Source of the DNA: Deltaproteobacteria bacterium
Lineage (GTDB): Bacteria; Myxococcota; JACRCW01
Assembly (NCBI GenBank): GCA_016218805.1
Contig: JACRCW010000039.1
Coordinates: forward strand, 62,001-84,903
Reading direction: 5' to 3'
Length of the DNA: 22,903 bases
Shown: positions 19,308 through 22,903 of the stretch, in pieces
Layout of the letters: each line of letters opens with the position of its first letter
Position numbering within the stretch: position 1 is the stretch's first letter
Notes under the pieces: generated by a model
The model's database searches: none
What the model was told of the DNA's origin: nothing
What the model saw: the letters and a program-made list of their open reading frames with translations, nothing else
Translations under genes and position numbers: made by a program

Positions 19308-19742
19308 TCAGCCGCGCTCCAGCCGCAACGTGGTCCCGCCGATCCGGATGACGTCCCCCGGGTCCAGGTCCGCGTCCTGCACGTGCTGGCCGTTGACCTC
19401 CGTCCCGTTGGTGCTCATCAGGTCCACCACGGACACCGCCCCGCGCGTGTCCACAAACACCATGGCGTGCGTGCGGGACACCCCGTCATCCTGCAGTTCC
19501 ACGTCCGGCCCGCGCCGCGTCAGGCGTGACCGAACCGCCTGCCCGCCGGTGGCGCGCGTCACCAGCTGCATCCGGTCCGGGTCCAGCGCGCGCGCCCCGT
19601 CCACGGTGAGCTGCACGGTGGCGTCCGCGGCGGACACCGCGCGGCCCAGCACGCGGTAGGCGCCTTCCAGCAGCGGGTAGCGCATGCCGGACTGCGCGCG
19701 TGAGGGGGACTCAACAATGAGGAGGTGCCAGGCCGGTGCCAT
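19308..19742 (-). CDS. Stand-alone FHA domain protein
   Basis: FHA hallmarks LGR, VSRTHA, VVDLMSTNGT, LDPGDVIRIG. Confidence 0.88.
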   Translation of the reverse strand: MAPAWHLLIVESPSRAQSGMRYPLLEGAYRVLGRAVSAADATVQLTVDGARALDPDRMQLVTRATGGQAVRSRLTRRGPDVELQDDGVSRTHAMVFVDTRGAVSVVDLMSTNGTEVNGQHVQDADLDPGDVIRIGGTTLRLERG

Positions 19743-19751
19743 GGGGCCTGC

Positions 19752-19825
19752 TGGATAGCACACCTTTCCGTGATGCCGCCTCGCGCGGGCCACCCTTGAG
19801 CCCGGTTGTCCCAGGCTGCTATGTG
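19752..19825. promoter_or_regulatory. Putative divergent promoters
   Basis: Plus strand: TTGAGC (19796)-N18-TATGTG (19820) with extended TG. Minus strand: TGCTATCCA (19760-19752) just ahead of the FHA ATG. Confidence 0.3.
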
Positions 19826-19853
19826 CCCCGGCCTCAACGGCAACGGGGATCCC

Positions 19854-20594
19854 ATGGTCAATCTCACCTCATTCGGCAAGCCGGTGACCGCGCGCACGCA
19901 GGCCGCCAAGTACGTCAAGGAGCGCGCGGACCTGCTGGCGAAGTACCTCTCCAAGCACGGCCTGGAGTCCGACCTGGACGCCATCATCGAGTTCGGCGGC
20001 GTTGCCCAGGCGCTCAACTCCGCCCAGGGGCAGTCGCTCGGTGCGGGCAAGGGGGCCACCGGAGACGTGCAGGCACGGTTTGTTGCCCTGCAACAGTCCT
20101 ACAACGACGTCATGGCCGGGCTGTTGGCGGTCATCGGCGACCTCAAGCGGGCCAAGCCGCAAAAGCCTGACGTCATCACGGAGGCCGAACGCATCTACAA
20201 GAATGAGTCCGCCCTCCTCATCACCATCACGGAGACCGACGGCGGCAAAAAGGGCGAAGCGGCGCGCTCCAAAGCCCAAGAAGCGCTGCGGGCAGAGATC
20301 TGGAAGGACGCTGACGCACTGCTCTCCTTCAAGGGCGGCAAGGCGGCCCTGGAGAAGCGGGGACTCACCACGGACGCCCTCACGGCCCTGAAGACCAATG
20401 CGGACGACCTGGCCGGTTCCCTCGCGACCCGCACCGCCAAGAAAGGTGCGTCCAAGAACGTCACGGTCCAGGAACGCCAGGCCGTTGCGGACCAGGCGGA
20501 CTACTGGGGGTCCTGCTACCGGATTCTCGCGCTGACAGCGGAGAATGATGAATCACTCAAGGGGCTGTTGAAGACCGCACGCCGGCCCCGCTGA
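19854..20594 (+). CDS. Hypothetical all-alpha, Lys/Ala-rich cytoplasmic protein (246 aa)
   Basis: Strong GC3 codon bias. ATG 19854 preceded by GGGGA. Amphipathic helical pattern. No family recognised. Confidence 0.8.
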   Translation: MVNLTSFGKPVTARTQAAKYVKERADLLAKYLSKHGLESDLDAIIEFGGVAQALNSAQGQSLGAGKGATGDVQARFVALQQSYNDVMAGLLAVIGDLKRAKPQKPDVITEAERIYKNESALLITITETDGGKKGEAARSKAQEALRAEIWKDADALLSFKGGKAALEKRGLTTDALTALKTNADDLAGSLATRTAKKGASKNVTVQERQAVADQADYWGSCYRILALTAENDESLKGLLKTARRPR

Positions 20595-20623
20595 ACCAGA
20601 GGGCAAGCGCCCTCCCCTCTGGT
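20595..20623 (+). terminator. Stem-loop immediately after the stop codon
   Basis: ACCAGAGGG (20595-20603) / CCCTCTGGT (20615-20623): perfect 9-bp stem, no U-tract. Confidence 0.4.
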
Positions 20624-21043
20624 GGGTCACACCCCTTGAAACGAAGGCGATTGGAAGGGGGCGCGCATGGCGTCCGGTCGTTCGCTGTTCACGTGTCTTT
20701 CCGGGCTTTCCCAACTCAGCGTTGTTGAACCTCGTAGCGGACACCTTCGGCGTGTCGCCATCAGCCACCAGCGCGCTGGTTTCCCTCCGGCAACTGCTGA
20801 GACTGTCCACTCGAAGGCACCTGCGCGCCCGAGGCCCAAGAAACAGCTCGCGCCGGGGTCTGAGCCGATTGCCATTCGGGTCCATCTCCGCAGGAGGCAA
20901 CAGCTACCGACACCGACACATGAAGCAAGAGACCCTCGCCCACCAACCAGCGCCCGCGACAACGGGTAGACAGCACGAGCCCTCACTGCTTGCCGCGCAC
21001 CAGGCCGCACAAGACGGAGAGCCACCCGCACGATTGGGACAAC

Positions 21044-22096
21044 ATGATCAAGCCGACGATCTTCATTAGTCACTCGCCCTTGGACGCCGCCTTTGTCGGT
21101 CGACTGAAGACCATGATTTCAGACCGGACTGGATGTGTCCTTGACATATTCGTGTCAAGCGACGGTCAGAGCATTCCGTTTGGACGAAACTGGGTCTTGC
21201 GGCTGGAGGAGGCGCTGAGGGAATGCAAGGCAATGATCGTTCTTCTGACTCCAGCGTCGCTCGAGTCGCGGTGGATATTCTTTGAGGCTGGCCACGCCTA
21301 CGCAATGAAGATACGCGTGATTCCAATCGGCGCTTTGAGCGTGGACATGACAAAGGTACCCCCGCCACTGGGACTCCTCCAGGGATTCAACCTCAAATCC
21401 GAGGACGGCCTGAACAACATCATTGGCGTAGTCAACGAGCTCTTCGGACACAACCACAAAGCCTCCTTCTCGGCGGCCGACTACGCGTCGCTCATCGCCG
21501 GAACCGCGGCGGGCCACGCCGGACCGCTCAACGAGTTCGTTGGGGTGATAGATGAAATCGAGACCACACTGCATGTGCCCTTTGTCGACCTGCGGCGTGT
21601 CTTGGAGCGCTATTTCACCGCCAACGCGACTCAGTACTCGGTCCACGACTTGGCCATCAACACGTTCGGAGTACGATTCCGTTCCTTCCATGATGACCAA
21701 CGAGAGACCCTTGTTGAGATTGACCCGAGGATGTTCAGCGAGGCATTGGGCATACTGCACTCCCTCCAGACACCCGACGGAGCTTCGCTGCTCGGCGACC
21801 AGGAAACGGCCATTCGCTTCAACATGGCCATCCGCCGCATTCCCCGACACCACAGCATGACGGCGGCACTGCATGGTACAGGCGTCACGATCGAGAAGGA
21901 CGGGCGCTTTCGACTTGGAAACACGATTTTTTCAGTTGACACGAGAAGGGAGATGACCATTGTTGGCAGCGAACCCATCTTCAAGTCGATGGAGGTGGTT
22001 CTTTCGATCGGCACGCAGGAATGTCTTCCAGATGAGACCTCGATCGCAGACATCCTCCGGATCTTGTTTGATCGCTGCATTCTCGGTCCCGATTGA
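21044..22096 (+). CDS. TIR domain protein (TIR_2-like) with an unknown C-terminal domain
   Basis: IFISHS, IFVSSDGQSIPFGRNW, LEEALREC, IVLLTPASLESRWIFFEAG (putative catalytic Glu81, codon 21284-21286), RVIPI. GC is clearly below the flanking core genes. Confidence 0.9.
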   Translation: MIKPTIFISHSPLDAAFVGRLKTMISDRTGCVLDIFVSSDGQSIPFGRNWVLRLEEALRECKAMIVLLTPASLESRWIFFEAGHAYAMKIRVIPIGALSVDMTKVPPPLGLLQGFNLKSEDGLNNIIGVVNELFGHNHKASFSAADYASLIAGTAAGHAGPLNEFVGVIDEIETTLHVPFVDLRRVLERYFTANATQYSVHDLAINTFGVRFRSFHDDQRETLVEIDPRMFSEALGILHSLQTPDGASLLGDQETAIRFNMAIRRIPRHHSMTAALHGTGVTIEKDGRFRLGNTIFSVDTRREMTIVGSEPIFKSMEVVLSIGTQECLPDETSIADILRILFDRCILGPD

Positions 22097-22365
22097 GCGG
22101 ACCTTGAGCGACGCGTCATCCTTCTCGTAACCCGCGTTGGAATCTTGCCGCTTTCGTTTCACGAACAACGCACGAGCCACAGGCTGTCCCTCATACGGGG
22201 CCAGGTTGGAACCACCGTGGCGTCAGACGGCGGACGGCATGATGCGTATCGGCCCGCGTGTGCGCTTGGGCAACTCTTTGTGCCCACCGGGTCGGCCTCG
22301 GCACAGGAGGCTGCCGCGCACATCTCGTCGCTGCAGGCAACTCTAGTCCAAGACGGAGGTGCACC

Positions 22366-22821
22366 ATGACCATCGTGGAGTTCTTTCGAACGGCGTTCAC
22401 CGAAGCCGAGCTCATGCAGCGCCGCGCGTCGATGTCCAATGAGGAGTGGACGCTTCACCTCGGCCGAGCAGCTGCCGAGTGCGCCGGCCGAGTCGGGCTC
22501 TACTGTGCGACGAAGGGAGCCCCGGACGCCTTTGGCCGTGCCGAGTACTTCACCCTCGACGTCACAATGATGGAAGCCGGCCACCCGACTGACCCTGTCA
22601 CCGAGGTGAGCTACCCGCCGCCCGCCATAACGATGGAGTTCGAGAACCTCCCTGAGAAGATCACCTACGATTACTGGAAGCTCGTATGCGTGAGGTCCGC
22701 GCTCCGCGTTCTTGTCTACGTGCTTCCCGACTACGAGACGGCTAACGCAGCTGTTCTCGCCAGACTGGTGTTGTCTCTCACACTGCAGTCCAGGGCAGAG
22801 GGTGTTTCTTCCCGGTCTTGA
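22366..22821 (+). CDS. Hypothetical protein, possible PD-(D/E)XK restriction-endonuclease-like fold
   Basis: GGAGGT RBS (22355-22360) 5 nt before the ATG. Motif order EYFTLDV...AITMEFEN...YDYWKL...ALRVLVY. The ORF is likely real; the fold assignment is inference. Confidence 0.55.
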   Translation: MTIVEFFRTAFTEAELMQRRASMSNEEWTLHLGRAAAECAGRVGLYCATKGAPDAFGRAEYFTLDVTMMEAGHPTDPVTEVSYPPPAITMEFENLPEKITYDYWKLVCVRSALRVLVYVLPDYETANAAVLARLVLSLTLQSRAEGVSSRS

Positions 22822-22903
22822 CCAACGCGCGGACACGTGAGGGCGCGGGGAAGGCCGGGAATTGGCTGCAAGGGAACGCGGGGATGATGATGGAGGGGGA
22901 AAG

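Follow-up and report, generated by a model that had tools for sequence, protein, structure and literature searches.

A candidate single-gene TIR defence beside an interrupted BamHI-like nuclease gene at a contig end

The last two genes of a 22,903-nt stretch of Deltaproteobacteria bacterium DNA (the window, which forms the final 22.9 kb of contig C161 in a 6.4 Mb, 92% complete assembly) raise the question of whether they form an anti-phage module. Gene 1 encodes a TIR protein and gene 2 a small nuclease-like one, and an earlier note on this DNA had proposed either a new TIR plus nuclease system or two independent genes. Its description of a co-oriented pair of lower GC content with a 269-nt gap was confirmed, with GC fractions of 0.564 for gene 1 and 0.623 for the native part of gene 2, against 0.73–0.75 in four neighbouring genes and 0.70 in the genome. 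We read the locus as two unrelated, horizontally acquired cargo genes lying side by side, gene 1 SpbK-like and gene 2 a broken solo nuclease, and give this reading a probability of roughly 0.58.

Outside this genome the TIR and nuclease families were found together at none of 95 nuclease loci and none of three full-length TIR loci, and the pairing was also absent at nine viral loci of the TIR family and in the genomes tested, the gene 2 subclade contributing few informative loci. Co-occurrence of homologues had been set beforehand as the test that could refute a module, and the two genes are very probably not a conserved pair. The proposed module is not supported because the families were unpaired at every other locus and genome examined and gene 2 is cut by an insertion element, while the alternative of two independent genes fits both observations. 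A Thoeris-like pair that is now partly broken, in which an ADP-ribose-type signal made by the TIR would activate the small nuclease, would suit the co-orientation, the low GC of both genes and their spacing, and predicted DNases are reported among putative Thoeris effectors (10.64898/2025.12.03.692087). However, besides the lack of co-occurrence, the ~190-aa nuclease forms one compact domain in its model with no separate ligand-binding domain apparent, and its family's usual partner is hmaB/hmaC, which leaves such a pair most improbable.

Gene 2 is interrupted by an insertion element, and of this we are close to certain. Similarity to its closest relative (190 aa, 49%) stops at residue 134, exactly at the junction, and the remaining 17 codons of the open reading frame (ORF), residues 135–151, are read-through into a repeated element. 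The 135 bases from 22769 to 22903 recur unchanged where contigs C129, C21, C66 and C22 end, and 111 nt of them near the end of C153; all six copies in the genome begin with TGTTGT, their flanks all differ, and the window and its contig both end inside the element. A candidate for the other element end, present in three copies, has 9 of its first 11 bases in common with the first end (by eye), in keeping with terminal inverted repeats, and two of its three flanks match 4-bp flanks of the first end (chance 0.0024 by simulation), as target duplications would give. Depth at the junction rises about 7- to 13-fold in public runs X1, X2 and X3, with high-depth records of 1282 and 1369 nt, and the depth of the element is put at about 10–13x; these data are contigs from four runs of one study, and one run may be the source of the assembly. 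We read the repeated element as an insertion sequence of about 1.3–1.4 kb. Among the 170 contigs of the assembly there was neither a duplicate of the probable target site CTGG nor a further element end flanked by CTGG. The transposase and the body of the element are missing from the assembly, and nothing informative in 400 genomes or plasmids matched the element. No empty-site allele (a loose end after 22768) was seen in the contigs of the four runs, which drop rare variants and in which unique ones reach only 24–29 nt into the element. Runs X1–X3 also hold an element variant that is identical over the first 29 bases (22769–22797) and diverges after them. The C153 copy (G000:C153:11830-12080) ends after 111 nt and is followed by other sequence starting TGTGAA, present in run X3 too, which may be another element inserted within the first one. 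More than 10 groups of distinct repeated contig ends (3–8 copies each) break the assembly of this genome, pointing to a heavy insertion-sequence load.

The element thus made a truncated gene at a contig end resemble a small intact one, and as a pair the two genes are a false lead. Relatives carry a median of 51 further residues, with at least 25 in 27 of 29 rows and 45–57 in all six of its subclade, and about 50 C-terminal residues of gene 2 are missing. The model of the 190-aa relative places half of helix 123–138 and strands 146–153, 165–170 and 173–176 in the part that gene 2 has lost. The missing 3′ part gave no tblastn or profile match in the 170 contigs (best E-value 0.14; smallest contig 2225 nt). 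Gene 2 is probably a recent pseudogene whose function is lost. It is very unlikely that the 151-aa product is still an active nuclease: E60, D65, E91 and E93, its four putative catalytic residues, all precede the break, the ribosome-binding site is intact and 2 of 26 relatives are 151–159 aa long, but half a helix and three strands are gone, both short relatives break off suddenly when aligned and may be incomplete, and an insertion would be expected where a toxic gene was inactivated. An insertion sequence has been described as disrupting a TIR system that was toxic (PMC11350192).

The family of gene 2 has no Pfam, NCBIfam or PADLOC model; gene 2 itself is without a Pfam or PADLOC match, and 30 members compared with all three collections gave weak single-member matches only. 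The motif residues ascribed to gene 2 are present, and its putative catalytic E...D...ExE tetrad is conserved in the family (E60, D65 and E91 in 79 of 79 homologues, E93 in 78), but D102 is not invariant. The fold is predicted to be a restriction-endonuclease alpha/beta fold like that of BamHI and OkrAI, as assigned from a predicted model. At 70 of 95 loci, members of an Hma-type clade are translationally coupled inside Hma (type-1 BREX-related) operons, between hmaB and hmaC. The well-supported clade of ~195-aa BamHI-fold nucleases at loci L018–L021 and L036–L110 (e.g. L069:8001-8555), coupled to hmaB and preceding hmaC, is possibly a regular fourth component of an Hma subtype, and several of the same operons carry ABC-ATPase genes matching PADLOC HEC-04 between hmaA and hmaB (L043:3401-4855, L069:3485-4945). 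Gene 2 falls in a separate clade (support 100/98) that looks solo; neither hmaB nor hmaC has a match in this genome, which shows only weak SNF2 matches, on another contig, and 55 pattern matches to the gene 2 subclade in viral contigs yielded 0 confirmed members. A second solo member of the family, L030 (G277:C6:1110-1590), is apparently split in two frames and lies beside an intact paralogue at L022. Gene 2 would then be a former solo BamHI-like nuclease, with a sister clade serving Hma operons, from which the element removed the last ~50 residues.

The TIR with a WxxxE glutamate described for gene 1 was borne out by a Pfam TIR_2 match at aa 6–121 (E-value 1.1e-12) and by the presence of W77 and E81 in every one of 114 aligned full-length proteins. 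The BB-loop region is invariant as well. The family is widespread, with hundreds of ~350-aa proteins of a single fixed architecture and no dedicated PADLOC model. Of 391 further genomes 2 carried it, and of 201 also 2 (the same pair; one full-length). Plasmids yielded 2 partial relatives and phages 3 (with P0030; L126 and L112 are one element), and neither yielded a full-length one. Proteins of 250–300 aa at L114, L130 and L115–L120 have the same TIR subtype without the C-terminal domain of gene 1, which suggests domain swapping behind this TIR. SpbK was the top row when the gene 1 model was put through a wide fold search, the alignment running beyond the core TIR to aa 155, and the PADLOC spbK profile matched aa 3–88 with an E-value of 0.013. 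The ThsB profile also matched weakly, over the TIR part only (E-value 1.6e-6). This match, together with a contig that ends in the element and lacks its continuation, would fit an orphan ThsB-like signal-making sensor whose effector lies past the element or elsewhere, unassembled, but the three independent full-length contexts besides the window locus have no neighbour gene in common and no ThsA-type protein by Pfam among their scanned neighbours, and the genome has no SIR2_2 match (the accompanying STALD search had no positive control). We regard an orphan sensor as unlikely. The absence of a ThsA-like effector, cyclase or Argonaute from the window, as first noticed, extends to the genome for SIR2_2, SMODS and Piwi or short Argonaute matches (a positive control was detected for the last); Pycsar cyclases were not searched genome-wide.

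Behind the TIR, aa 160–350 have no Pfam match. This ~190-aa alpha/beta domain is modelled as two beta-alpha-beta-beta-beta-beta-alpha-like units, and its 16 alignment columns conserved at 60% or more are mostly hydrophobic, G or P. Its net charge across the family has a median of −5 and is positive in 4 of 114 members. Fold searches with the full gene 1 model returned match lists filled by the TIR part, and when the C-terminal region was searched by itself, 1028 candidates gave no match but the query because of a sensitivity limit, the full-length search having found the family. An Atlas structure search led to a 69-member TIR_2 cluster (TM 0.71), and an Atlas feature search of the C-terminal region gave no usable match. 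The domain might instead bind a small-molecule or nucleic-acid signal, possibly from systems encoded elsewhere, in a TIR-SAVED- or TIR-STING-like manner or as a TBP-like reader, making gene 1 a ligand-gated effector, or gene 1 might have a non-defence role. Effector-plus-receptor layouts are described as common among TIRs (PMC12847820), the secondary-structure pattern is repeated, and there are weak TBP-like hints (Atlas row 8, TM 0.38; a viral TBP match, E-value 5.3e-4, TMq 0.17). But conserved polar pocket residues are almost lacking, most members are net acidic, the internal repeat is not detectable at significance (hhalign E-value 0.089), no cyclase gene was seen among the scanned neighbours of any locus, and SMODS is missing from the 92%-complete genome, and we consider this second alternative for gene 1 quite improbable. 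Anti-phage papers that mention both TIR and TBP-like domains report the latter as fusions with Schlafen or HEPN. A bolder joint proposal seems doubtful to us: that the gene 1 family is an undescribed, widespread single-gene TIR immune receptor whose C-terminal half, a tandem saddle of TBP-like type, has become acidic and now serves as a fast-evolving sensor of phage proteins, and that Hma has an unrecognised fourth subunit in the gene 2 family, whose BamHI-type ExE nucleases are coupled in translation to the DUF1156 methylase and have also escaped as solo genes.

For gene 1, SpbK-type logic is the best-supported model because of the invariant glutamate and BB-loop region, the variable second domain, the lack of a fixed partner and the lack of a SIR2_2, SMODS or Piwi gene; this support is architectural. 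Gene 1 is likely anti-phage, and direct depletion of nicotinamide adenine dinucleotide (NAD+) seems somewhat more probable than signalling. The variable C-terminal domain would sense a phage component, more likely protein than DNA because the domain is acidic, sensing would cluster the TIR domains into head-to-tail assemblies and complete a composite active site around E81, and consumption of NAD+ would arrest the infected cell (abortive infection). Such a chain is described for SpbK, whose accessory domain binds a phage product, with head-to-tail assembly and NAD+ cleavage ending the infection (PMC11984713; PMC12847820). Several points weigh against our reading of the locus, the position of gene 2's four putative catalytic residues before the break among them. 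The ThsB profile is matched weakly by 102 of 114 family members (best E-value 8e-9), and TIR fold scores are equal with plant and animal TIRs, so that fold does not separate NADase effector from signal maker. Two of the three other full-length TIR contexts have short downstream flanks (2051 and 464 nt), and three are too few to measure defence-island enrichment. With the genome 92% complete and the assembly broken within the element, a partner could still lie past the break. In the subclade of gene 2 the upstream side is visible at one locus only (L002 = L031), L001 and L032 having less than 160 nt upstream.

Features of the locus, in window positions
Feature	Position	Strand	Remarks
Gene 1	21044..22096	+	350 aa; intact TIR protein
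W77-x-x-x-E81, catalytic-type TIR motif (codons 77–81)	21272..21286	+	W77 and E81 in 114/114 aligned full-length proteins
C-terminal domain of gene 1, putative sensor	21521..22093	+	17–19% mean identity to homologues; net charge −9
Spacer	22097..22365	.	269 nt; GGAGG ribosome-binding site of gene 2's own
Gene 2 ORF	22366..22821	+	151 aa; E60, D65, E91-x-E93, D102, K105
Gene 2, native part	22366..22768	+	opening 134 codons; the whole restriction-endonuclease-like protein would have ~190 aa and a predicted BamHI/OkrAI fold; E60, D65, E91, E93 kept
Probable 4-bp target site CTGG	22765..22768	+	suggested by 4-bp flank pairing at two other copies
Insertion element, one end	22769..22903	+	starts TGTTGT; supplies residues 135–151 and stop (22819–22821) of gene 2 ORF; contig breaks inside

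A consensus scan of the locus found 0 sigma70-like promoter sites, and terminator-like sites numbered 5 against 2.7 expected; repeats within 19500–22903 were nothing unusual. Upstream of gene 1 and co-oriented with it is a 246-aa ORF (19854–20594, forward strand) of host-like GC3, without a Pfam or PADLOC match and with a paralogue on contig C33 that is 35% identical.

By title and abstract, no paper found in the literature searches describes the gene 1 architecture or the gene 2 nuclease family, though supplements, e.g. of PMC12839542 and of bioRxiv preprints, may list them. Among the known systems closest to the gene 2 family is Hma, or type-1 BR (SNF2 helicase-nuclease, DUF1156 methylase, DUF499 ATPase), most of the loci sampled having the family between hmaB and hmaC; gene 2 differs in its separate clade and in a genome without either gene. 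Rakesh and Krishnan assign Hma-type loci to the type-1 BR systems and describe, in general terms, stand-alone PD-(D/E)XK nucleases in or near them (10.1101/2025.10.09.681413), and the text consulted does not single out the gene 2 family. Payne et al. name nine Hma-embedded candidates, none by its description a stand-alone small nuclease of the gene 2 kind (10.1101/2024.01.29.577857). About two thirds of hma operons are reported to carry insertions, and the roles of hmaB and hmaC to be unresolved (PMC11232893), and the nuclease family provides a further candidate cutter for Hma that can be tested. The restriction endonucleases BamHI, OkrAI, BglII and BstYI, and NucC, are also among the closest known systems; the gene 2 family has the tetrad and the predicted fold of BamHI-like PD-(D/E)XK nucleases, whereas the window copy lacks a complete domain.

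For gene 1, Thoeris ThsB (types I–IV and newer types) is alike in its TIR with a conserved glutamate and its weak profile matches, but gene 1 has no adjacent effector at the four full-length loci seen (the downstream side of the window locus is cut), and its 350 aa include an extra domain. The systematic Thoeris survey of Yirmiya et al. is described as setting stand-alone TIRs aside, and such families are under-tested for that reason (10.64898/2025.12.03.692087). TIR-APAZ (SPARTA), TIR-SAVED, TIR-STING and Pycsar TIR effectors match only the TIR of gene 1, in a genome with no Piwi or SMODS gene. Escherichia coli TIR-V, TIR-VI as well as TIR-IX are one-gene TIR defences set off by structural proteins of phages and, going by their description, are short TIR-only proteins unlike gene 1 (PMC11350192). 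SpbK of Bacillus subtilis ICEBs1, a single-gene TIR NADase that acts by abortive infection, likewise joins a catalytic-glutamate TIR to one accessory domain in one gene, but is described with an N-terminal 4-helix bundle and a C-terminal TIR (PMC12847820), an order reversed in gene 1 with its N-terminal TIR and ~190-aa alpha/beta domain. The gene 1 family is a variation on this known type, an uncharacterised candidate for TIR defence by one gene in which the sensor-like domain is likewise uncharacterised, and as such it is well placed to be tried as a one-gene defence whose sensor domain is new.
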